The position numbers were made by a program, and so were the translations under genes. The notes under the pieces were generated by a model. That model saw nothing but the letters and a program-made list of their open reading frames with translations. It had not been told where the DNA came from and did no database searches. Below are positions 18,247 through 58,491 of a stretch of DNA of 64,000 nucleotides, in pieces (the stretch's first letter is position 1; every line of letters starts with the position of its first letter). Origin of the DNA: Escherichia phage EcoM2; sequence record PQ818761.1. One strand, written 5' to 3'.

Positions 18247-20391
18247 ATGAACAAAGTACAGATTATTAAAAAGAATGGCTCACTTGAAGAACCTGATATC
18301 AAAAAAGTATTAGCAGCAGTAACTAAGTCAGCTAACAGGGTTGGATATAAAGAACTCCCACCAGATGTTACCCAAGCTCTTGAGTCAGCATTCATGAGGA
18401 TTCTGGTAAAGTCCACTAAGCAGAATAATTTACTCATCTCAGTCAATGATATTCACAGCATTGTTGAGGGTGCTTTGGCAGAAGTCAATCACGAGATTTA
18501 TGAGTCTTACTCAACATACAGAAATTACCGTAAAGAAGTTGCTCAAAATTGGGATGAACTCTATCAGAAGACTAAAGACACACTCTTCTTAGGTGACCGT
18601 GAAAATGCTAACTTTGACAGTAGTTTAATTTCTACAAAAGGTTCAATTATTCGTGGTTATCTGACTAAAGAAATCTTTAAACAGTACCATTTAACACCAG
18701 AGGAACTCGAAGCCATTGAGAAAGGGTTTATCTATATCCATGATTTAAGAGACCTAATTTTTGGTGGTATCAACTGTTGCCTGTTTGACATTGGTAAAGT
18801 GCTGAAAGGTGGCTTTGAAATGTCTGGCATCGAATACTGTGAACCAAAGTCTGTGCTGTCAGCCTTACAGGTTATCGGTGATGTAGTTCTTTCAGCAACT
18901 GCACAGCAATTTGGTGGTTTTACTTTAGCAGAGATTGATAAGGTGCTTGTACCGTATGCTAAGAAGTCTCTACGCTATCATGCTGAGAAAGCAGCATCTT
19001 ACGGTATTCCTAAAGAACATTACCATAATTATGTCATGGAGCAGCTACAGATTGAATTAACTCAAGGTTTCCAGTCACTAGAGATGAAGCTAAACACTGT
19101 GCCTTGTAGCCGTGGTGATTTTGCATTCACAACTTTAACATTTGGTTTACTTGACTCAGACATGTCTAATGAAGACAACCGACTACAATACATGATTGCA
19201 AGTACTCTCCTAGATGTTCGTATGAATGGGCAAGGTAAGAGCAAAAAACCTGTTGTATTCCCTAAACTGGTTTATATCTACGACCAGAAGAGACATGATG
19301 AAAATATCTGTCAAGGCCACTTGTACAGTAAAGCTATTGAGTGTTGCTCTAAAGCGATGTATCCAGATTTCTTAAGCGTATCTGGTCATGGTGCTGTAGC
19401 AGAAGCTTTTGAGCGTTCTGGCAAGGTAATTTCACCGATGGGTTGCAGAGCTTTCTTATCCCCATATCTTAACGAGAATGGAGAAGAGTTCTACGTTGGA
19501 CGTGCTAACATTGGTGCTGTGTCTTTGAACTTGCCAATGATTTACCAGTATTCTAAAGAGAATGGTTTAGATTTCTGGAAAGAGCTTGATAAGTACCTAG
19601 AGATGATTCGCAGCTTCCACAAGAAACGCTACGAAATGATTGCTAATATGCCAGCAAGTTCTAACCCTCTTGCATTCACACAAGGTGGTCTGTACAAAGG
19701 GACTAAGAAACCTACTGACAAGGTTGGTTGGGATATCGTGAAGTCCTTCACAGCTTCTTTTGGGGTTACTGCTCTTGATGAGCTGTCTGTTCTTGCTGAA
19801 GGTAAACGACTTCATGAAGTTGGAAGCTATAGTTTTGCATACGATGTTCTGGCATACATTAACATGAAAACTGAAGAGTTTAAGAACGAAGATGGCTTCT
19901 TGTATGCGGTATATGGCACTCCAGCAGAATCACTTTGTGGAACTCAGTTAAAACAGTTCAGGGATATGTTTGGCGTTATTAAAGGTGTCTCTGACAAGGA
20001 ATATTTTACAAACAGTTTCCATATGAATGTTGCAGCAGATATCTCACCATTTGAGAAGCAGGACTTAGAAGAGCCATTCTTCCATATCTGTAGAGGCGGC
20101 AGAATCCAGTATGTGAGAGTAGCTAACCCAGAAAACTTACCAGCACTTAAAAGTTGTATTACAAGAGGGATGTTGAAGGGTTTTTATCAGGGACTTAACT
20201 TTGACTTAGCAATCTGTGAACATTGTGGTAACAGACCAAAGGCTGATGTTGAAGAGTGTGAGGTTTGCCATTCACATGACATCTCTGTGATTAACAGGGT
20301 GTGCGGATATCTGGGATGGACTAAGATTAAAGGTGAATCCCGAATGAATGATGCAAAAATCGCTGAGATTCGTGACAGGATTTCTATGTAA
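18247..20391 (+). CDS. nrdD: anaerobic ribonucleoside-triphosphate reductase (class III)
   Basis: 714 aa; C-terminal Cys cluster CEHCGN...CEVCH followed by glycyl-radical motif RVCGYLG. Confidence 0.85.
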   Translation: MNKVQIIKKNGSLEEPDIKKVLAAVTKSANRVGYKELPPDVTQALESAFMRILVKSTKQNNLLISVNDIHSIVEGALAEVNHEIYESYSTYRNYRKEVAQNWDELYQKTKDTLFLGDRENANFDSSLISTKGSIIRGYLTKEIFKQYHLTPEELEAIEKGFIYIHDLRDLIFGGINCCLFDIGKVLKGGFEMSGIEYCEPKSVLSALQVIGDVVLSATAQQFGGFTLAEIDKVLVPYAKKSLRYHAEKAASYGIPKEHYHNYVMEQLQIELTQGFQSLEMKLNTVPCSRGDFAFTTLTFGLLDSDMSNEDNRLQYMIASTLLDVRMNGQGKSKKPVVFPKLVYIYDQKRHDENICQGHLYSKAIECCSKAMYPDFLSVSGHGAVAEAFERSGKVISPMGCRAFLSPYLNENGEEFYVGRANIGAVSLNLPMIYQYSKENGLDFWKELDKYLEMIRSFHKKRYEMIANMPASSNPLAFTQGGLYKGTKKPTDKVGWDIVKSFTASFGVTALDELSVLAEGKRLHEVGSYSFAYDVLAYINMKTEEFKNEDGFLYAVYGTPAESLCGTQLKQFRDMFGVIKGVSDKEYFTNSFHMNVAADISPFEKQDLEEPFFHICRGGRIQYVRVANPENLPALKSCITRGMLKGFYQGLNFDLAICEHCGNRPKADVEECEVCHSHDISVINRVCGYLGWTKIKGESRMNDAKIAEIRDRISM

Positions 20392-22344: not shown

Positions 22345-22356
22345 GCAGATACTATA

Positions 22357-22382
22357 AGGGAACTGTAAAGGTTCCCTTTTTA
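22357..22382 (+). terminator. rho-independent terminator
   Basis: GGGAAC-tgtaaag-GTTCCC hairpin followed by TTTTT. Confidence 0.55.
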
Positions 22383-22395
22383 TTTTGGAGATAAT

Positions 22396-22911
22396 ATGTA
22401 TCTGTCAAATCTGAAACGTTCTGCTGCAATGTCAGTGTTAAGACTCAGTTTTGAGGAACGTCAAGAGTTCATTGACTCCCACCAATACGACCCTTCCAAC
22501 TCCAATCACATGATTCTCTGGAATCGTGAGAGTACTCGTGAAAGAGCATTATTTCGATATTATCCACACTACACCATAGACAACCTGTATGAATGTTTTG
22601 TTGTGAAGAACACCATTACAGTACTCAATAAACTTTGCAGATATACAGGTAGTCAATCCTTCACATTAGGCCACCACAAACCTGTTACAAAAGGTGGTGA
22701 ACATCACTGTGCAAACTGGTTTATTCAGACTAAAGCTGATAACCAGAAGCAAGGAGATAGCCTTTTAAGTACCCCTAAGATGACCTATGAAGAGCAAGAG
22801 AGATATATCAAAAATAATATGCCAGATGTGCTTGACAACAACTATACAGATTTGGCAATATCTCTCCTGTTGAAGTTCGAGATAGTTTATAGGGCAACTT
22901 ACAATGGCTAA
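22396..22911 (+). CDS. HNH endonuclease
   Basis: LGHHKPVTKGGEHHCANW matches the HNH core (His-His...Asn). Confidence 0.6.
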   Translation: MYLSNLKRSAAMSVLRLSFEERQEFIDSHQYDPSNSNHMILWNRESTRERALFRYYPHYTIDNLYECFVVKNTITVLNKLCRYTGSQSFTLGHHKPVTKGGEHHCANWFIQTKADNQKQGDSLLSTPKMTYEEQERYIKNNMPDVLDNNYTDLAISLLLKFEIVYRATYNG

Positions 22912-23182
22912 AGAAAAGTGGGAGATTTTACCACTAGTCAGCGAGGGTGGTAATGGTTGTGAAATGTACATGATACGTGGTCATGTCCCAGAACCAATTG
23001 CACTTGAGATGGTAAACAATTTTACAGATGGCTCTTACAAAGACTTAGGAGAACCAACTGTCAAGCAACAATGGGTTAAACCTGTACCAGACAGCACAGG
23101 TAACTGTAGTGTACTTTATCACGTTGTAGACCCTGCAAAATGCAAATCTGCAATGGCAGTAACAAACGTAACTTTTGATTGA
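22904..23182 (+). CDS. hypothetical protein
   Basis: 92 aa ORF. Confidence 0.4.
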   Translation: MAKEKWEILPLVSEGGNGCEMYMIRGHVPEPIALEMVNNFTDGSYKDLGEPTVKQQWVKPVPDSTGNCSVLYHVVDPAKCKSAMAVTNVTFD

Positions 23183-23194
23183 GAGAGAAAAACT

Positions 23195-24076
23195 ATGAAA
23201 ACATCTATCCGTGTTACAGTTCATTCACCAACTAAAGGAACTCATGAAGAAGAGTTTAACATCACCCAATTTCCTTCTGGTGAGATTGGTGGACACTTTT
23301 CGCCAGAGTTTGTTGATTTTACTGCTTATGCAGCATCATCTATCAACAATGTGATTATGATTGTAAAAGGTTATGATAAAGACACATTGTTTGCTGTGGC
23401 ACTTGCTAAAGAAGCAATTGATAATTTAGTACCTCATAAGTTTGCTATGAAGACCATTATCTTTTACTATTTGCCAAATGCACGTTATGACCGTCACATG
23501 TTTAAAGGTGATGCAGCAGCTTTGAAAGTGTTTGCACAACAGGTTAATGCAATGGGTTTTGATGCAGTCTGTGCAGTTGACTCTCACAGTTATGTACCAG
23601 ATAACCTGTTTAACTGCTTCCAGAGTATCCCCCAAAAGGAGATTGCAGTCCACTATGCGAATGACCCTCTGGTTGATTACTTAGTAGCCCCAGATGCAGG
23701 TGCTTCTAAGAAGATTGCAGAGACTGCTAAAGAGGTGGATAAACCATACATCACAATGTCTAAAGTGCGTAACCTTAAGACTGGTGAAATTACTGGTATG
23801 CGAATCCTTGATGATGTTGATTTGACCGATAAAACTGTTATGATTCTCGATGATATCTGTGATGGCGGTCGAACCTTCATAGAAGCAGCTAAACATCTTC
23901 GTGAAGCAGGTGCAAAACGTGTGGAACTCTATGTAACACATGGTATCTTCTCTAAAGGTGTTGAAAACCTTCTTGACAATGGTATTGACCACATCTACAC
24001 TACAAACTCTTTAGGGGAAGCTAAAGACCGTGGATTAACACATTATGGTCAAGTTACTGTAGCAAACCTTGATTAA
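23195..24076 (+). CDS. ribose-phosphate pyrophosphokinase-like phosphoribosyltransferase
   Basis: PRPP-binding motif VMILDDICDGGRTF; N-terminal FPSGEIGG resembles the Prs FxDGE region; 293 aa. Confidence 0.65.
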   Translation: MKTSIRVTVHSPTKGTHEEEFNITQFPSGEIGGHFSPEFVDFTAYAASSINNVIMIVKGYDKDTLFAVALAKEAIDNLVPHKFAMKTIIFYYLPNARYDRHMFKGDAAALKVFAQQVNAMGFDAVCAVDSHSYVPDNLFNCFQSIPQKEIAVHYANDPLVDYLVAPDAGASKKIAETAKEVDKPYITMSKVRNLKTGEITGMRILDDVDLTDKTVMILDDICDGGRTFIEAAKHLREAGAKRVELYVTHGIFSKGVENLLDNGIDHIYTTNSLGEAKDRGLTHYGQVTVANLD

Positions 24077-24086
24077 AAACTTTATA

Positions 24087-24108
24087 GGGGGCTTTTAAGC
24101 CCCATTTT
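24087..24108 (+). terminator. putative terminator
   Basis: GGGGGCTTTTAAGCCCC hairpin followed by ATTTT. Confidence 0.5.
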
Positions 24109-24123
24109 GAGAGAGATTAAAAG

Positions 24124-25905
24124 ATGACTAAATCACTTTATGCAGTACCAGCAGGTTTAAACGCAGATGCTTACAAATCTGGTCACATTTATCAGTACCC
24201 TAGTGCAACAGAGTACTTGATGTTTAACCTGACACCACGTAGTGATAAATGGTTTAACAGTCCTTTGGCAATTGACGGTGTAGTGGCTTTTGGTATTCAG
24301 CGTTTTGTTAAAGATTACTTGATAGACCACTGGAACGCCACCTTCTTTGAACGTGATAAAAAAGAAGCAATTGATGAAATCTTAGAAGTCATGAATGGTG
24401 TTCTGGGTAAAGATGCTATTGGTCGAGAGCATTGGGAAGCACTTCATGATTTGGGTTATCTACCAGTTGAAGTATACGCTGTAGAAGAAGGCACAGTTGT
24501 ACCTATGCGTGTGCCAATGATTGTCTTCCAGAATACTGTTTCAGGTTTCCATTGGGTAGCGGGGTATCTGGAAGATGCTTTCTCTGCTGAGATTTGGAAG
24601 GCTTGTACCATTGCAACTATTGCATTGCACTACAAACGTATCTGTAAGAAGTGGGCTGACCTTACTTGTGACAACGACTTGCATTTACCTTATCAGTGCC
24701 ATGACTTTGCTATGCGTGGTATGTCCGGCTTTACTGATGACGCATTTAACGCTGTAGGCCACTTAACCAGCTTTAAAGGAACTGATAGCTTCCCTGCTGT
24801 ATATACAGCTAAACGCATCTACGGTCAGTCCTACCCAATCTCTGATATTGGTAGCTCTGTACCCGCCACTGAACACTCTGTAATGTGTGCAAACATTGCT
24901 TGGGAAGGTGGTAATGAGTTGATTGAAGAAGAAAGACGCTTCAAAGGTGAGTTACAAACCTTCCGTCGCTTCTTAACAGAAACTTACCCAACTGGTATTG
25001 CAAGTGTTGTTTCAGACACTTATAATTTCTGGAGAACTGTATCAGTAATACTACCAGAACTCCGTAAAGAGATTATGGAACGTGATGGCAAACTGGTAAT
25101 TCGTCCTGACTCTGGAGACCCTGTACATATTGTCACAGGTTATAAAGCAATTCACTTAGAGTGTGCTAAAAAGGCTTATTACGAACACCTAAGCAAGCTG
25201 GAAGCCAGCGACACAATGTTGAATACTGTTCTGAACATGAAGCTTGAAAACATCAACTATGGTATTGCTGGATGGCTACTGTCAGAAGGCTACGAAATGG
25301 TTGTTGACAGAGAAGACTTTGAAGTTGCTGATACAGTGATGTTGAAAAATGCTTATATGGTTGGTTCTGCAAACGTTGTAACACGTCCTGTAGCAGAGAT
25401 TGATGGGGCTATTAAGACACTGTATAACATCTTTGGAGGGACTATCAACTCTAAAGGTTTTAAGGTACTGGATGAGCACATTGGCCTTATCTATGGTGAC
25501 TCTATCACGTTGGAACGTGCAAACGAAATCCTGAAGCGTTTGTATGAAATGGGTTTTGCAAGCTCTAACGTAGTGTTTGGTGTAGGTTCTTACACTTACC
25601 AGTACATGACTCGTGACACCTTTGCATTTGCTGTCAAAGCAACTCTTGCAAGCATTGGTGGTAAAGAGATTATGCTTGCAAAAGACCCTAAAACAGATAG
25701 TGGTGTTAAGAAGTCTGCTTTTGGTGGTGTAGCACCTATGTGGGATGGCGATAAGCTGAAAGCTGTAGATGGCTATGGATTCCAGAGCTTTGCAGATGTG
25801 CTTGAACATCCAGCTTGTGCTTTACGTTTAGTCTTTAGTGACTCTGAGCAGTTCGGTTACACAACTCTTGGTGATATTCGAAATAATATTGACAAGCAGC
25901 TTTAA
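24124..25905 (+). CDS. nicotinamide phosphoribosyltransferase
   Basis: ADAYKSGHIYQYP, LPVEVYAVEEGTVVP, HDFAMRGM and FKGTDS follow the NAMPT motif pattern (DSYK..H..QYP, LP..I.AV.EG, HDFG.RG, FKGTDT) as I recall it from the human enzyme. Confidence 0.8.
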   Translation: MTKSLYAVPAGLNADAYKSGHIYQYPSATEYLMFNLTPRSDKWFNSPLAIDGVVAFGIQRFVKDYLIDHWNATFFERDKKEAIDEILEVMNGVLGKDAIGREHWEALHDLGYLPVEVYAVEEGTVVPMRVPMIVFQNTVSGFHWVAGYLEDAFSAEIWKACTIATIALHYKRICKKWADLTCDNDLHLPYQCHDFAMRGMSGFTDDAFNAVGHLTSFKGTDSFPAVYTAKRIYGQSYPISDIGSSVPATEHSVMCANIAWEGGNELIEEERRFKGELQTFRRFLTETYPTGIASVVSDTYNFWRTVSVILPELRKEIMERDGKLVIRPDSGDPVHIVTGYKAIHLECAKKAYYEHLSKLEASDTMLNTVLNMKLENINYGIAGWLLSEGYEMVVDREDFEVADTVMLKNAYMVGSANVVTRPVAEIDGAIKTLYNIFGGTINSKGFKVLDEHIGLIYGDSITLERANEILKRLYEMGFASSNVVFGVGSYTYQYMTRDTFAFAVKATLASIGGKEIMLAKDPKTDSGVKKSAFGGVAPMWDGDKLKAVDGYGFQSFADVLEHPACALRLVFSDSEQFGYTTLGDIRNNIDKQL

Positions 25906-25918
25906 AAGTATATGATAA

Positions 25919-25942
25919 GAGGCTCCTACGGGAGCCTTTTTA
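25919..25942 (+). terminator. rho-independent terminator
   Basis: GGCTCC-TACG-GGAGCC hairpin followed by TTTTT. Confidence 0.65.
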
Positions 25943-25958
25943 ACTTCTGGAGAAGATT

Positions 25959-26294
25959 ATGAAAATCAAAGAAATGAACATCAATATTGTCTTAGAAGAA
26001 CGCTGGGAGAACATCAAGAAGCCTGAAAATGGTCATAAGTTCCTCAACAAAATCTTAGTAGCAGCTAAAGAAGAACTGACTGGCAAGGTTGCAGCAGCAA
26101 TCACAATAAAGGTCTGTGTAAAAGGTCTTCCAGACAATCACCAATTTGCACTTGACGAGTTTAAAGAAAGCTTCTACAATCCAAACAAACAGATGCTTGA
26201 AAGTAACTTTGCAGTATCTACAAGTATCGTCCATGACAGAAGCTTTATCCTTTACAAGAATATGAGAGGTGAGTCATGCAAGCATATTGGATAG
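25959..26294 (+). CDS. hypothetical protein
   Basis: 111 aa ORF. Confidence 0.4.
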   Translation: MKIKEMNINIVLEERWENIKKPENGHKFLNKILVAAKEELTGKVAAAITIKVCVKGLPDNHQFALDEFKESFYNPNKQMLESNFAVSTSIVHDRSFILYKNMRGESCKHIG

Positions 26295-33684: not shown

Positions 33685-34464
33685 ATGGGTATTGTAAAAG
33701 TTGTGAAAGGTAACTTACTGGCTGCCTTCAAAAACACAGATATCGAGTTAATTGCTCATGGTTGCAACTGTCGTAACCTCATGGGTGCTGGAATCGCTCA
33801 AAAAATTGCTAAGATTTTCCCAAAAGCTGAAGAAGCTGACAGGAAATTCCATAAGAAGTTTGGCTACAATGCTCACGATATAGGATACCAGATGATTGGT
33901 GAGGTGTCACATGCTCGAACAGAGTATGGTTACATTTTTAACCTATATACACAGTTGGATGTTGGAAAGTGTGCATCATACCGATACTTAGTGGAGTCAC
34001 TAGAAAAACTCCGTAAGTTTTGCTGGATGCACAACATTCGTAAGATTGGTTTACCCATGATTGGGGCAGGTATCGGTGGGTTAGACGCACAAGCCGTGAA
34101 AAGCCTCATTAATAGCATTATGTACAACGTTGATGTGTACCTATACGTCTATGATGAAGCAATGGCAACTGTAGTTACCCCTAAGTATGCCACCTCAGCA
34201 CCACAATTCTATGATGGTGTTGTTCTCAGTGACGGTAAGTCTAACCATGTTACCCTCTATCAACTTGTTGAAGGTAAGGTAGAGGTTAGTTACCCTCTGG
34301 TTAGTGAGATGGGTATGTGTAACAGTGAAATGTTCTCAGTTGACCCGTTTGGTAGATACGAAGGGGTATTCTTTGATAACTACCCAGCAGCATACATCTA
34401 CACAACAAATCAGGATGAAGTTCACTACTTGCTGTATTCTAAAAAGTTCAAATTCATAAGCTGA
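33685..34464 (+). CDS. macro-domain (ADP-ribose binding/processing) protein
   Basis: N-terminal region ELIAHGCNCRNLMGAGIAQKIAK fits the macro-domain N...G-x-G-(V/I)-A signature; about 100 aa C-terminal extension of unknown function. Confidence 0.6.
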   Translation: MGIVKVVKGNLLAAFKNTDIELIAHGCNCRNLMGAGIAQKIAKIFPKAEEADRKFHKKFGYNAHDIGYQMIGEVSHARTEYGYIFNLYTQLDVGKCASYRYLVESLEKLRKFCWMHNIRKIGLPMIGAGIGGLDAQAVKSLINSIMYNVDVYLYVYDEAMATVVTPKYATSAPQFYDGVVLSDGKSNHVTLYQLVEGKVEVSYPLVSEMGMCNSEMFSVDPFGRYEGVFFDNYPAAYIYTTNQDEVHYLLYSKKFKFIS

Positions 34465-41467: not shown

Positions 41468-41505
41468 TCGACGCAACGGGGCTAAATAGCCCCAGATACC
41501 TTCAC

Positions 41506-41528
41506 AGCCCCATTTAAGGGGCTTTTTT
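41506..41528 (+). terminator. rho-independent terminator
   Basis: AGCCCC-atttaa-GGGGCT hairpin followed by TTTTTT; ends the rightward small-gene array. Confidence 0.6.
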
Positions 41529-41529
41529 A

Positions 41530-43128
41530 CGTCTATGTAATAGCCCCTATACAATCCTTTCCCTTTCCTTTCCAGAATCTTACTAGACCTTAAAAGCAAT
41601 AACTCTATAGCTTACTCTATAACCCCTTATCAAATCAACTTAAATATAAGCCCATAACCCGAAAGGGAAGGGCAACCGTTTAAACGCTCTATAAAGCTCT
41701 ATAACAGCCTTATCAACCTAACTTAAGGGATTGCATTACCTCACCCTTAAAAGCCCTTTATAAAGCTTCTCAGAGCCTTAAAAGAATCTTATAAGGGTGT
41801 AAGCTTTATTATCTCGTTAGTTCCTTGTGAATATCTAGAAAGGGCTATGAGATAGGAATCTATCGAATCCTATTGTTAGTGTCTTAAAAGTGTGTTATAG
41901 GGGCTATGAAGTTACTTCAAAGTTGCTTAAAAGTTACGTAAATGCTAGCCCCCTTAACATTTTCTTAACAATTTCTTAACAAACCCTACATAGTTATGCT
42001 TTTAAGGCACTTGTTAGCAACTTGTTAGCCCCTTGTTAAATCTCTGTTAAAACCACGTAAAAGCCTTGTAAGAGTCTTTGACATAGCCTTAAAAGCTCCT
42101 GTAAAGCTCTATAAAAAGGTGTCTGTACAGTTGGGGTGTAATTACTAGGAAGAGACTTAAAAGAGCTTACAAAGAGCTATAGAGAGCTTTTAAGAGGTAT
42201 GTTTAAGGAATCACTAAGAAAGGAAAGGGAATGATAAGAAAAGGGATAGTGACCATGTTAATAGCTTGTTAAAAAGATTAGACACTTGTTAGGAACTTGT
42301 TAATTATCTTAACAAAATAACTCTTAAAAATTAACTTGTTAGCTCTTGTTAGTCACTGTTAAGACTCTGTAAAGACCATGTATCGACTGTTAAGAACTTG
42401 TTACAGCCTTGTTAGTTCTGTTAAGAGTCTGTTAAGACCTCTGAAGAGATGTTAAGAGCTTGAGAGAGTTGTTAAGAGATTGTTAAGGATATTTTAAAAT
42501 TCTGCAAAGGGGATGTTACAGGGATGTTAAGGGCTACCAAGCAGATATACATCCTAGACAGATATTTTTCAGTTCCTTCAAAAACCCTAAAAAATGACTT
42601 GATAGCCCTATTTTATAAAAATTTTAAAAATCTGAATAATTACCTAGACAGTCTTTCAAAAATACAGGTAGAAACAGGCTTATAAGATACCTTGTTAGTA
42701 CCGTGTTAGACCTTGTGAGATAAGGTCTGTAAAGATATTCCTGTTAAGTTTGTTAAAACAGTCTATATAGAGGCTTAGTAATACCTAGTGAACACCTATA
42801 GAGGGTCATCTATGTGACATAGAGATTAAGAGGTGTATAGGAGCTTCTAAGAATGTGTAGAGAGATGGTTAAGGTGATTGTATAGGTTGTTAAGAATGCT
42901 TGTTAGAAGAGTGTTTAGAAGGGCTATACAGATGGGCTATTAAGACCACTAGATAGATACTAAGATACTATATAGTACTATATAACTGTATATAGAGAGT
43001 AAGCTTAAGAAGGGTGTTAAGAAGGATAGATATTTTATTCACATATGATGGTGACCCAGAGGTTGGGACAACCGATAAAATTTTATAAAAATTAAAAAGC
43101 CCCCAATTAAGGAGGCTCTTAAGATATT
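41530..43128. repeat. ORF-free repeat-rich region with iteron-like short direct repeats
   Basis: About 1.6 kb with no ORF of 60 aa or more on either strand; more than 20 copies of TGTTAAG / CTTGTTAG, locally at about 11-bp spacing (42330-42540), plus CTTAAAAG and GCTCTATAA repeats. Confidence 0.6.
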
Positions 43129-55641: not shown

Positions 55642-55716
55642 GCATCCATAGTTTAAACGGGAAAATTACAGTCTTCCAAACTGAGGTTGAGGGTTCGATT
55701 CCCTCTGGATGCTCCA
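55642..55716 (+). tRNA. tRNA-Gly (anticodon UCC)
   Basis: Acceptor GCATCCA/TGGATGC, anticodon loop CTTCCAA, T-arm GAGGGTTCGATTCCCTC, CCA. Confidence 0.75.
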
Positions 55717-55730
55717 AATTAAGGTGTGAT

Positions 55731-56144
55731 ATGAAAATATGCAGTACTTGCAGAATACCAAAAGATGAAAGCTTATTCCATAAGAATAAGAACAAAAAAG
55801 ATGGTCTTCAAAGTCAATGCAAAGACTGTGCAAGACTTCGTGATGCAAAGAGTTATCAAGCAAATGATAAAAGGAAAGAGGCTATTAAAAGCACTCGTAA
55901 CGTCAAGAGAGAGTATAACAAGGCTCTAGCTAGAAGGTACAAAGCTTTATGCAAATGTCATATATGTGGTGAGAAAGAACCAGTTGCACTGGATTTACAC
56001 CATACAGACCCTTCCCAGAAAGATTTGAATCCTGCATCACTTTATTCATACTCCACAAAAAGATTAAAAGATGAAATCAGAAAGTGCATTGTCTTGTGCG
56101 CTAACTGCCACAGAAAAGTACATGCTGGTATCATAAAAGTTTAA
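55731..56144 (+). CDS. HNH endonuclease (homing-endonuclease-like) inside tRNA cluster
   Basis: 137 aa with Cys pairs and LHHTDPSQKDLNPAS...CANCHRKVH, an HNH zinc-finger core. Confidence 0.6.
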   Translation: MKICSTCRIPKDESLFHKNKNKKDGLQSQCKDCARLRDAKSYQANDKRKEAIKSTRNVKREYNKALARRYKALCKCHICGEKEPVALDLHHTDPSQKDLNPASLYSYSTKRLKDEIRKCIVLCANCHRKVHAGIIKV

Positions 56145-56145
56145 T

Positions 56146-56222
56146 GCTGCTTTCGTATAATTGGCTATTACACATCCCTTGTAAGGATGGAAATGCAGGT
56201 TCGAGTCCTGTGAGCAGCACCA
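56146..56222 (+). tRNA. tRNA-Thr (anticodon UGU)
   Basis: Acceptor GCTGCTT/GAGCAGC, anticodon stem CATCC/GGATG with loop CTTGTAA, T-arm GCAGGTTCGAGTCCTGT, CCA. Confidence 0.75.
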
Positions 56223-56329
56223 ATTCAGAGGTCAAGTGAAAGACCGCTTTGAGTCAACTGAAGACCGTAACAAATTCCACGGAGTTGAGTTAGCGGCACA
56301 ACTCCAGACCTCTTCTCACACTCGCTTAG

Positions 56330-56394
56330 TTTATATGGTAAAACATCACCCTTACAAGATGAAGAAAAAGGTTCAAGTCCTTTAGTGAGTACCA
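56330..56394 (+). tRNA. tRNA-Val (anticodon UAC)
   Basis: Acceptor ACTCGCT/AGTGAGT, D-stem GTTT/AAAC, anticodon loop CTTACAA, T-arm AAAGGTTCAAGTCCTTT, CCA; only about 65 nt by my coordinates, so boundaries need software confirmation. Confidence 0.55.
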
Positions 56395-56395
56395 T

Positions 56396-56473
56396 GTTCC
56401 AGTATCCCAATTGGCAGAGGATGCAAGCTCAAACCTTGTACTAGTGACGGTTCGAATCCGTCTTGGAACACCA
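56396..56473 (+). tRNA. tRNA-Leu (anticodon CAA), short variable arm
   Basis: Acceptor GTTCCAG/TTGGAAC, anticodon stem GCAAG/CTTGT with loop CTCAAAC, T-arm GACGGTTCGAATCCGTC, CCA. Confidence 0.55.
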
Positions 56474-56478
56474 ATTTT

Positions 56479-56554
56479 GCAGGATTAGTTCAAATGGATA
56501 GAGCAACAGTCTACGAAGCTGTTAATAGGGGTTCGAATCCCTTATCCTGCGCCA
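56479..56554 (+). tRNA. tRNA-Arg (anticodon ACG)
   Basis: Acceptor GCAGGAT/ATCCTGC, D-stem GTTC/GAGC, anticodon stem ACAGT/GCTGT with loop CTACGAA, T-arm AGGGGTTCGAATCCCTT, CCA. Confidence 0.8.
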
Positions 56555-56573
56555 ATTTAAAGAGGCTATTTAG

Positions 56574-57131
56574 ATGAGATATTTGAAGTATGCTTCATGG
56601 ATTTTCTTAGCTTTGTTAGAGCCATTTGCAGCAATCTTAGCAGTTATCTTAGCACCCTTTGTAGTTCCATTCTACAGTGAGAAGAAAGGCCACTTACCTT
56701 TCGGATTCAGGTGGATGGAGACATATGACAACCCAATTGATGGTGATGAAGGTCACGTTAAAAGATGGGCTAAGATTAGAAAGATTGGTAAGCTTGGTGT
56801 CTATATGCAGAGAGTTGGTTGGCTCTGGAGAAACAAAGCTTATAACTTCTCTTACCATGTGTTAGGAAGAGATGTAAAAGATGTTACTAAGTGGAAAGGT
56901 AATATCAATGTAAGTTCTAACCCTGAAGATAATCAGACAGGTTATCTCCTAATGTGGAACAGTAATGCTTGGGGATTATTCGCTTTTATCCCGTCAATTA
57001 AAGTCTTTGGTAAGCAATTCTACTGGAGAATTTATGTTGGGTGGAAACTTAAAAGTGTTGTCCCAGAAGAAAGAGCATTCTCAAGGGGAAGAGTTATGTT
57101 GGCATTCTTTATTCATCCACTGAGAAAGTAA
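56574..57131 (+). CDS. hypothetical membrane protein inside tRNA cluster
   Basis: 185 aa; N-terminal hydrophobic region WIFLALLEPFAAILAVILAPFVVPF. Confidence 0.45.
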   Translation: MRYLKYASWIFLALLEPFAAILAVILAPFVVPFYSEKKGHLPFGFRWMETYDNPIDGDEGHVKRWAKIRKIGKLGVYMQRVGWLWRNKAYNFSYHVLGRDVKDVTKWKGNINVSSNPEDNQTGYLLMWNSNAWGLFAFIPSIKVFGKQFYWRIYVGWKLKSVVPEERAFSRGRVMLAFFIHPLRK

Positions 57132-57139
57132 AGATTTAA

Positions 57140-57215
57140 AGGGGATTAGTTTACAAGGTTAAAACCTCGGTCTTTGAAATCGAAGAAGTTGGTTCAATTC
57201 CAACATCCCCCGCCA
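57140..57215 (+). tRNA. tRNA-Gln (anticodon UUG)
   Basis: Acceptor AGGGGAT/ATCCCCC (A1-C72 unpaired), D-stem GTTT/AAAC, anticodon stem TCGGT/ATCGA with loop CTTTGAA, T-arm GTTGGTTCAATTCCAAC, CCA. Confidence 0.65.
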
Positions 57216-57217
57216 AT

Positions 57218-57296
57218 GCTCCATTACTCCAATTGGCAGAGAGGCCAGACTTAAAATCTGTGTTATGTATCGGTTCGAATCCGATATGGAGTACCA
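57218..57296 (+). tRNA. tRNA-Leu (anticodon UAA), short variable arm
   Basis: Acceptor GCTCCAT/ATGGAGT, anticodon stem CAGA/TCTG with loop CTTAAAA, 7-nt variable region, T-arm ATCGGTTCGAATCCGAT, CCA. Confidence 0.55.
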
Positions 57297-57301
57297 AATT
57301 T

Positions 57302-57377
57302 AGCGGTATAGCATAACTGGCAATGCAACAGTCTCTGAAGCTGTCTTATTAAGGTTCAAATCCTTATGCCGCTGCCA
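57302..57377 (+). tRNA. tRNA-Gln (anticodon CUG)
   Basis: Acceptor AGCGGTA/TGCCGCT, D-stem GCAT/ATGC, anticodon stem ACAGT/GCTGT with loop CTCTGAA, T-arm TAAGGTTCAAATCCTTA, CCA. Confidence 0.75.
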
Positions 57378-57408
57378 CTTCTAAGGGTTCTTACGAGAGT
57401 CCTTAAAT

Positions 57409-57484
57409 GTGGCCTTATCATAAAAGGTAATGACCCATGCTGTGAACATGGTCTATACGGGTTCAAATCCCGTAGGTCACCCCA
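57409..57484 (+). tRNA. tRNA-His (anticodon GUG)
   Basis: Acceptor GTGGCCT/AGGTCAC, D-stem TCAT/ATGA, anticodon stem CCATG/CATGG with loop CTGTGAA, T-arm ACGGGTTCAAATCCCGT, CCA. Confidence 0.8.
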
Positions 57485-57489
57485 ATTTA

Positions 57490-57566
57490 TAGTCCAAGTA
57501 GCTTATATGGTTAAAGCGCGTGTCTGAAAAACATGAGAAGAGGGTTCAAATCCCACTGGACTACCA
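57490..57566 (+). tRNA. tRNA-Phe (anticodon GAA)
   Basis: D-stem GCTT/AAGC, anticodon stem CGTGT/ACATG with loop CTGAAAA, T-loop GGGTTCAAATCCC; exact acceptor boundaries ambiguous by hand. Confidence 0.6.
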
Positions 57567-57582
57567 ATTTCAAAGGTGCTTA

Positions 57583-58317
57583 ATGAAAGAGATGACAGAA
57601 CAAGGTAAGGAGATTTTTAATCTCTTAAAAACCGGTAGAGGGTTTTCTAATCCCCTTATTACTGGTGCAGCAGTTCTAGGTGGAACCGTAGCTGCCTCTA
57701 CATCACTTGTAAGCTCTATTAGCTCTGTAACAGACCCTACAATAAAGGATAAGCTTGTTGCCGCTGGACTGACAACAGTTCTGCTTAACAGCTTTACAAC
57801 GAGTCTGACAAGCACTACATCAACTACTAAGACATTGACAGATTATGGTCAAAAGTCTATTGATGAGTTTTCCTCACGTATGCAGGTAGCAAAAGGCTAC
57901 TCCAATGTTATGGGTGCAGCAGGAGAGCAAGTTGGTTGTACACCATTTAGTGGTATTATGGGTGTTGCTACAGAGTATGGTCAAAAAGCTATTGACACAA
58001 TTAACAGTGCACTAGACGGTGTTAATGATGTATTAAGTGACTTACAAGATGCTATTGATAAAGGTCTTGATACTGTTTCTGATTTAGCTAACCAAGCTGT
58101 TAGTAAGATTAATGAAGGTATCTCGAAGATTACAGCTTATGCAGATGAAGTTGTGCAGATGATTGAAGAAGAAGCTGCCCTTATTGCAGAGTACCTTAAA
58201 ACGAATATCAATGGGTTCTTAGCAGGTATCTTACCAGACTGGTTTGATGATGCTTGTAAAACTGGTGTAATTGACACTATTGCAACACCAGAAATGAAGA
58301 ACGCATTACAGAAATAA
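57583..58317 (+). CDS. hypothetical Ser/Thr-rich protein
   Basis: ORF-track ORF 57520..58317 trimmed to ATG 57583 so it does not overlap tRNA-Phe; Ser/Thr-rich N-terminal half. Confidence 0.45.
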   Translation: MKEMTEQGKEIFNLLKTGRGFSNPLITGAAVLGGTVAASTSLVSSISSVTDPTIKDKLVAAGLTTVLLNSFTTSLTSTTSTTKTLTDYGQKSIDEFSSRMQVAKGYSNVMGAAGEQVGCTPFSGIMGVATEYGQKAIDTINSALDGVNDVLSDLQDAIDKGLDTVSDLANQAVSKINEGISKITAYADEVVQMIEEEAALIAEYLKTNINGFLAGILPDWFDDACKTGVIDTIATPEMKNALQK

Positions 58318-58318
58318 T

Positions 58319-58411
58319 GGAAGATTAACCCTAAAAGGTAAGGGAGCAGTTTGCTAAACTGCCAGTAGCTGAGAAATCGGTGTACCAGTTCAAGTCTGGT
58401 ATCTTCCTCCA
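58319..58411 (+). tRNA. tRNA-Ser (anticodon GCU)
   Basis: Acceptor GGAAGAT/ATCTTCC, anticodon stem GCAGT/ACTGC with loop TTGCTAA, long variable arm, T-arm ACCAGTTCAAGTCTGGT, CCA. Confidence 0.8.
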
Positions 58412-58415
58412 ATTT

Positions 58416-58491
58416 GAATCCGTGACAGAAATGGCTATGTGCCTGTCTGCAAAACAGGTTTATAAGGGTTCGAGTCCCTTCGGATTCTCCA
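58416..58491 (+). tRNA. tRNA-Cys (anticodon GCA)
   Basis: Acceptor GAATCCG/CGGATTC, anticodon stem CCTGT/ACAGG with loop CTGCAAA, T-arm AAGGGTTCGAGTCCCTT, CCA. Confidence 0.8.

Follow-up and report, generated by a model that had tools for sequence, protein, structure and literature searches.

The DNA analysed here is a stretch of 64,000 nucleotides (nt) of Escherichia phage EcoM2 (sequence record PQ818761.1), referred to below as the window, and its subject is a pair of adjacent genes on the plus strand that very probably represents the operon of NAD+ (nicotinamide adenine dinucleotide) reconstitution pathway 1 (NARP1) of a Felixounavirus, an already known system. The first gene, adps, is an open reading frame (ORF) for a Prs-like protein of 293 amino acids (aa) at 23195..24076, with its ATG at 23195, and the second, namat, is an ORF for a NAMPT-like protein of 593 aa at 24124..25905, the final base of the stop codon being 25905. 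Both were delineated by the ORF listing and domain matches, and a spacer of 47 nt lies between them. A preliminary description of the window had pointed to two adjacent genes for a Prs-fold and a NAMPT-family protein, and this part was borne out, as the ORFs were found at exactly these coordinates and gave matches in Pfam, PHROG and NCBIfam that are far above chance level.

Judged from its sequence, the window is genome DNA of a Felixounavirus (FelixO1-like phage). The 2.7-kb segment containing the pair matched 255 phage records in a megablast search, with a best nucleotide identity of 96.6%, and the records were nearly all of the Felixounavirus type, coming from Escherichia, Salmonella, Shigella and Citrobacter phages. 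The genes of the window, including NrdAB, NrdDG, rIIA/B, terminase and portal, also represent typical Felixounavirus content.

In phages, a Prs-like gene with a NAMPT-like gene after it is the hallmark of NARP1. The pair was compared with genes 79 and 80 of the BASEL phage Bas63 (JohannRWettstein, MZ501086), which belongs to the same genus. The lengths of bas63_0079 and bas63_0080 (293 and 593 aa), their order and their spacing are as in the window, and the neighbours match as well, with 0077 and 0078 upstream and 0082, 0083, rIIA (0084) and rIIB downstream. The two loci differ in the first approximately 160 codons of adps, which in Bas63 are of another allele class, and in bas63_0081, a gene for a 114-aa hypothetical protein just 3' of namat, which is absent from window positions 25905-25959, leaving an alignment gap of approximately 350 nt. 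The ratio of nonsynonymous to synonymous substitution rates (dN/dS) relative to Bas63 was 0.03-0.10 across adps and namat, indicating that both genes are kept by strong purifying selection.

Sequence and structural features of Adps and Namat

Adps matched Pribosyltran (1.8e-11) and Pribosyl_synth (2.8e-09) in Pfam and PHROG 619, named 'ribose-phosphate pyrophosphokinase' (9.6e-98), and it retains the catalytic Lys and the ribose-phosphate binding loop. Its PRPP (phosphoribosyl pyrophosphate) loop, DDICDGGRT (DDxxDGGxT, residues 219-227), aligns with that of E. coli Prs; ARYDR (the ARxDR motif, 96-100) and FPSGE (26-30) are kept; and K190 is, in the alignment, the counterpart of the catalytic K162 in the Adps of Bacillus phage SPbetaL1, which is the equivalent of B. 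subtilis Prs K197. In a reading other than NARP1, the pair would consist of a canonical PRPP synthetase and a canonical NAMPT, which would form PRPP and then nicotinamide mononucleotide (NMN), with completion by the host's NadR, by its PncC followed by NadD/NadE or by some phage enzyme, in a manner similar to the known pathway NARP2. The names in Pfam, PHROG and NCBIfam and nearly all GenBank annotations agree with it. However, Adps is far below all NCBIfam cutoffs for Prs equivalogs: its best equivalog score was 105 bits and every such cutoff is at least 296 bits, and only for TIGR01251, the broad Prs subfamily, was the score of 121 bits just over the cutoff of 113. In BLAST comparisons, Adps scored 124 bits with the Adps of Vibrio phage Gary, 96 bits with that of SPbetaL1 and 64 bits with E. 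coli Prs, and it is 80% identical to Bas63 gp79 in a gap-free alignment. A search of the Protein Data Bank (PDB) with Adps found no solved Adps structure, the top match being the archaeal Prs 4TWB (66 bits). We consider the protein to be a probable member of the Adps clade and not a housekeeping Prs, mainly on the basis of its orthology to Bas63 gp79 and the gene context.

For Namat, the Pfam matches were NAPRTase (1.7e-34) and NAMPT_N; PHROG 448, named 'nicotinamide phosphoribosyl transferase', matched at 7.9e-202, and the NCBIfam model NF006629 gave 468 bits where its cutoff is 405. Of the 593 residues of Namat, 583 (98%) are identical to those of Bas63 gp80. When solved structures were searched with its sequence, the SPbetaL1 Namat (9W5W/9W5X) scored 433 bits, followed by HdNadV, the NadV of H. 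ducreyi, with 354 and human NAMPT with approximately 145. The AlphaFold2 model of Namat had a pLDDT of 93.2 and a pTM of 0.91, and its top Foldseek match was the Namat crystal structure, with an E value of 5e-53 and a target-normalised TM score of 0.95.

It has been described that Namat is told from Nampt by the motif of a selectivity-clamp helix (SCH) and by a selectivity-clamp loop (SCL) that supplies an adenine-stacking residue (PMC12774641). The SCH consensus is GS-X-phi-X-phi-X-phi-TRD, in which positions 3 and 7 are aromatic, and the stacking residue of the SCL is either an Arg at position 3 or the residue that follows a Lys or Tyr there; in the Lys case, exemplified by Bas63, it is the residue at position 4 that stacks on the adenine (PMC12774641). 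The Namat of the window carries GSYTYQYMTRD at residues 488-498 (25585..25617, plus strand), which fits the published SCH consensus with Y490 and Y494 as the aromatic residues. The corresponding region of genuine Nampts is GAQTYQRNTRD in HdNadV, GGALLQKVDRD in the Xanthomonas (Xcc) enzyme and GGGLLQQLDRD in KVP40-like phage, and the adenine-clamp motif is thus absent from them, which argues against the PRPP- and NMN-forming reading. The SCL of the window protein, SDKWFNSPLAID, spans residues 40-51 (24241..24276, plus strand); R40 of SPbetaL1 aligns with its K42, and S40-D41-K42-W43 is the same as in Bas63, being of the Lys type with Trp43 next. The SCL and SCH clamp sequences as a whole are identical between Bas63 and the window.

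The NARP1 of SPbetaL1 has the same two-gene architecture, and its Namat is 43-46% identical to that of the window. The SCH is of the same type and the catalytic Lys of Adps is present in both, whereas the SCL is 4 residues longer in the window and has Lys-Trp in place of the stacking Arg. All 20 positions that contact NAD+ in the crystal structure of the SPbetaL1 Namat are identical or conservatively substituted in the window, the changes from SPbetaL1 being R40K (with W43 for stacking), S190A, A362S and F392Y. Furthermore, the catalytic core is kept, comprising H251 (the autophosphorylated His), R327 (R306 in SPbetaL1), D221 (D215), F195 (F189) and Y17 (Y15).

NARP2 of Vibrio phage KVP40, which consists of a Nampt and a bifunctional Nmnat/Nudix protein, also counters NAD+ depletion and also uses a NAMPT-family enzyme, but it starts at PRPP, proceeds via NMN and needs the Nmnat (the NMN adenylyltransferase), whereas neither an Nmnat nor a Nudix gene was found in the window. 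With Nampts of the KVP40 and 44RR types, the window Namat shares only 27-28% identity, and it lacks their GGGLLQ motif; it scored 298-314 bits against Namats and 125-127 bits against the Nampts of KVP40-like phage and 44RR. In the approximately 105 other ORFs of the window (10 flanking the pair and 95 more), Pfam detected no NUDIX (PF00293) or CTP_transf_like (PF01467) domain at an E value of 1e-3 or below, and no NMN adenylyltransferase or Nudix is listed in the Bas63 genome annotation. The partner gene of this kind that the preliminary description had proposed to look for was thus not found among these ORFs, which fits NARP1 and not NARP2 and weighs further against the NMN route.

Chemistry of the gene pair

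In the mechanism proposed for the pair, an NADase defence (SIR2-HerA/Nezha, type I Thoeris, DSR, SEFIR, Kongming, SPARSA or a similar system) would split NAD+ into ADP-ribose (ADPR) and nicotinamide. Adps, as a diverged ribose-phosphate diphosphokinase, would then move the pyrophosphate of ATP onto ADP-ribose, at its 1'' position, to give ADP-ribose pyrophosphate (ADPR-PP), and Namat, as a diverged NAMPT, would exchange the pyrophosphate of ADPR-PP for nicotinamide, yielding NAD+. The pathway would reuse the cleavage products of the defence at a cost of one ATP per NAD+, and would involve no free PRPP, NMN or NMN adenylyltransferase. No adenylylation step would be needed, because the AMP moiety enters with ADP-ribose. 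The question of which enzyme adenylylates the product, which had been left open in the preliminary description, thus falls away.

The NARP1 study of Osterman et al. was published in Nature in 2024. NARP1 was discovered in Bas63 genes 79-80, for which the starting hypothesis was also the formation of PRPP and then NMN, and this was refuted by the authors' own experiments (Osterman et al., bioRxiv 10.1101/2024.02.11.579819). Bas63 lacking genes 79-80 becomes sensitive to SIR2-HerA; rescue by Bas63 is independent of the host pncC and nadR; and in untargeted metabolomics ADPR-PP was detected only when cells carrying SIR2-HerA had been infected by the wild-type phage (bioRxiv 10.1101/2024.02.11.579819). 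With purified SPbetaL1 enzymes, Adps formed ADPR-PP from ADPR and ATP, and Namat made NAD+ directly out of ADPR-PP and nicotinamide (bioRxiv 10.1101/2024.02.11.579819). The Prs-type control reaction of SPbetaL1 Adps, described as ribose-5-phosphate plus ATP in the figure legend and as PRPP plus ATP in the text, gave no product, and when Namat was given both ADPR-PP and PRPP, it yielded NAD+ only, with ADPR-PP as the preferred substrate (bioRxiv 10.1101/2024.02.11.579819). In the same study, a Namat gene was the neighbour of 97% of Adps-clade genes. An independent knockout screen found that deletion of g79 or g80 caused a drop in plating of 1e4 to 1e6 on Sir2-HerA, with weaker effects of the same knockouts on retron Ec86 and hhe (10.1101/2024.10.10.617714).

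These results bear directly on the window, since its two proteins are 80% and 98% identical to the Bas63 orthologues. The synthesis of PRPP followed by conversion of nicotinamide to NMN, which the preliminary description had assigned to the pair, has been refuted for these orthologues, where the route is that through ADPR-PP; the product-free Prs-type control and the exclusive formation of NAD+ from the two competing substrates count against it as well. We therefore regard a canonical PRPP synthetase and NAMPT pair as very unlikely. The connection that the same description had drawn to phage NAD+ reconstitution against NAD-depleting defence is, in contrast, upheld by the loss of SIR2-HerA resistance on deletion of the orthologous genes 79-80. 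We infer that the proteins of the present phage have the same enzyme activities, including the Adps with its divergent N-terminal allele.

Several points weigh against the assignment of the pair to NARP1. The identity of Adps to SPbetaL1 Adps (30-34%) is barely above that to E. coli Prs (24-30%), and Adps differs by 20% from the tested Bas63 protein, mostly within codons 1-160, which are of the other allele class. The in vitro work represents the SPbetaL1 enzymes, and the Adps of Bas63 purified poorly (bioRxiv 10.1101/2024.02.11.579819). Namat still forms NMN from PRPP in vitro (PMC12774641), so that a minor NMN route might exist. In addition, the remaining approximately 24 kb of the genome, beyond the window, was judged from the Bas63 annotation only.

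Both genes have close relatives on the chromosomes of Enterobacteriaceae. At one such locus, from Klebsiella michiganensis (DAHJTQ010000013.1, 3211-6491), a gene for a Prs-like protein of 289 aa lies directly 5' of a Namat-like gene (496 aa), and a gene for NrtR, with NUDIX and WHD_NrtR domains, is divergent to this pair. Identity to the window proteins was 48% in both cases, for the Prs-like protein with the C-terminal 188 aa of Adps and for the Namat-like protein over the 56% of the Namat query that aligned. The SCH core G-GS-Y-TRD was invariant in an alignment of 41 sequences that included K. michiganensis. The bacterial NARP1 or NrtR-regulon prs-nadV genes (PMC12774641; PMC2330246) differ from those of the window in being chromosomal, in adjoining NrtR and in lacking an insertion of 83 aa that the window Namat has. 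Rodionov et al. (2008) reported that repression of prs-nadV operons by NrtR is relieved by ADP-ribose, and had no explanation for the dedicated second prs gene in these operons (PMC2330246); NARP1 chemistry, if it applies there, would explain this gene.

These relatives are relevant to a further reading, in which the pair would be a general metabolic booster that raises NAD+ or recycles ADP-ribose, for instance that from ADP-ribosyltransferases or sirtuins, independently of any defence. The close homologues in Enterobacteriaceae chromosomes adjoin the ADPR-responsive NrtR, which suggests housekeeping recycling in bacteria, and in the window the pair is surrounded by genes of nucleotide metabolism (NrdAB, NrdDG, glutaredoxin and dNMP kinase). 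However, NARP1 phages cause no rise in NAD+ in cells without a defence system (bioRxiv 10.1101/2024.02.11.579819), the presence of ADPR-PP only together with SIR2-HerA argues in the same direction, and the deletion phenotype, as largely observed for Bas63, is confined to defence-carrying hosts. A defence-independent role as the function of the pair thus appears extremely improbable.

NARP1 is an important recent discovery, and as a NARP1 operon the pair would represent two reactions, undescribed before that discovery, that undo immunity by NAD+ depletion and that are encoded by approximately 4% of sequenced phages. The locus itself adds nothing new to this, as NARP1 was discovered in this very operon and in a phage of this genus. 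Its practical value is rather in the correction of annotations, because the names 'ribose-phosphate pyrophosphokinase' and 'nicotinamide phosphoribosyltransferase' point to the refuted chemistry and, as they stand in the databases, also prompt a search for an adenylyltransferase that is not needed. Openings on the diversification of NARP1 are offered by the dimorphism of the adps alleles, by an orphan subdomain of Namat and by a distal gene for a Macro-domain protein, which are described below.

Variation in adps and namat

The segment 23218-23667 of adps, corresponding to the first approximately 160 codons (approximately 480 nt), showed 61-77% DNA identity to Bas63, whereas its flanks showed approximately 93%. 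The identity of this N-terminal segment was bimodal over 253 Ounavirinae records, with 150 at 90% or higher, 97 in the range of 60-80% and only a small number in between, and the adps of the window falls in the majority class, whereas that of the experimentally tested Bas63 falls in the minority class. Relative to Bas63, the segment has a saturated synonymous divergence (dS) of 2.4 and a dN/dS of 0.10. Diversifying selection was considered as the origin of the N-terminal divergence and was rejected because of this low dN/dS and the saturated dS. The comparison indicates that the N-terminus is likely an old allele acquired by recombination and maintained under purifying selection. It is possible that the two allele classes of Adps might differ in function.

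Namat contains, relative to SPbetaL1 Namat and NAMPT, the insertion of 83 aa already mentioned, at residues 344-426 (25153..25401, plus strand), which in the structural model is confidently predicted to form a compact alpha/beta subdomain. This subdomain is specific to Ounavirinae and has no recognisable fold. Its site is a hot spot of insertion across the family, ranging from 25 aa in the bacterial forms to 103 aa, and the Namat of phage Gary also carries an insertion there. The 83-aa subdomain might give Namat a further function, for instance in docking Adps or in evading an inhibitor. A second insertion relative to SPbetaL1 Namat, of 15 aa, is located at approximately residues 258-272.

Surroundings of the operon and a distal Macro-domain gene

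Homologues of Bas63 gp77 (22396-22911) and gp78 (22904-23182) lie on the plus strand directly upstream of the pair, running into adps, and they are preceded by a strong, putative terminator-like hairpin at 22356-22378. The two homologues may share a transcription unit with the NARP1 genes. Bas63 gp77 has been reported to counter retron Ec67 (PhageMaP preprint), and the stretch 22396-23182 may thus form a small anti-defence island together with NARP1.

Within the spacer between adps and namat, a putative hairpin was read by eye, GGGGC-TTTTAA-GCCCC (24088-24103) followed by ATTTTG, the whole spanning 24088..24109 on the plus strand. A purine-rich motif resembling a ribosome-binding site, GAGAGAGA, is present 5' of both genes, the copy in the spacer being just past this hairpin. 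A putative terminator-like hairpin, AGGCTCC-TACG-GGAGCCT (7 bp) with a T-run, was likewise found by eye 15 nt past the namat stop (25920..25941, plus strand). Neither of the two hairpins flanking namat was called in a terminator consensus scan. A consensus scan for promoters gave a putative sigma-70-like site, TTGACA-16-TATGAT, with 11 of 12 matches at 25889-25916, before the hairpin at 25920; promoter-like sites overall were twice the expectation from shuffled sequence, and none was individually convincing.

The variant NARP1-AP of Vibrio phage Gary has the gene order Adps-Adpp-Namat (bioRxiv 10.64898/2026.01.28.702374), and its Adps and Namat are 34-35% and 37-42% identical to those of the window. 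The accessory genes of NARP1 variants (Macro/Adpp and RyR/RyDEP) were not found by Pfam in the ten ORFs flanking the operon. The only Macro-domain gene of the window, at 33685-34464 on the plus strand (259 aa; Pfam Macro, 30 bits), is 7.8 kb downstream of the NARP1 pair. As it is outside the operon and none is present in the ten flanking ORFs, the system of the window is core NARP1 and not NARP1-AP as defined.

The Macro protein is homologous to bas63_0095, annotated as 'putative phosphatase', with 40% identity, and it is 28% identical (E value of 1e-13) to Adpp of phage Gary, the characterised ADPR-1''-phosphate phosphatase, with which it has the motifs AH-CNC...MG-GIA and GLP-IG-G in common. 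In the PDB, it matched OARD1 and Poa1p, and it bears an uncharacterised C-terminal extension of approximately 100 aa. The allele in the window is rare, being matched at 90% identity or more by 12 phage records, whereas the family is widespread, with 2827 phage records including T-even phages; because of this wide distribution, a link to NARP1 is only a hypothesis. The NARP1-AP survey counted Macro genes located at most two genes from the operon (bioRxiv 10.64898/2026.01.28.702374), so that a distal gene would go unscored, and the supplement of this aRES/NARP1-AP preprint contains no Felixounavirus, Bas63 or Escherichia phage entries. The Macro protein could, with considerable doubt, be put forward as a distal ADPR-1''-phosphate phosphatase that supplies ADP-ribose to NARP1. 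If so, Felixounaviruses would functionally be NARP1-AP phages, able to overcome aRES-type defence.

In the remainder of the window, 25 tRNA genes (Rfam) are located at 53033-58491 on the plus strand, in a cluster typical of Felixounavirus, and a scan of the whole window at the Rfam gathering threshold detected tRNAs only, none of them near the operon. A region of approximately 1.66 kb at 41468-43128, in which a single ORF of 53 aa is the only one of at least 45 aa, coincides with the switch from plus- to minus-strand genes and has the lowest G+C of the window (0.348). Its counterpart in Bas63 (70493-72154) is likewise unannotated, and the region might serve as an origin or in regulation. Finally, NrdD (18247-20391, plus strand) is an unbroken ORF of 714 aa in the window, whereas nrdD of Bas63 is annotated as two joined pieces split by the homing endonuclease gene bas63_0068.

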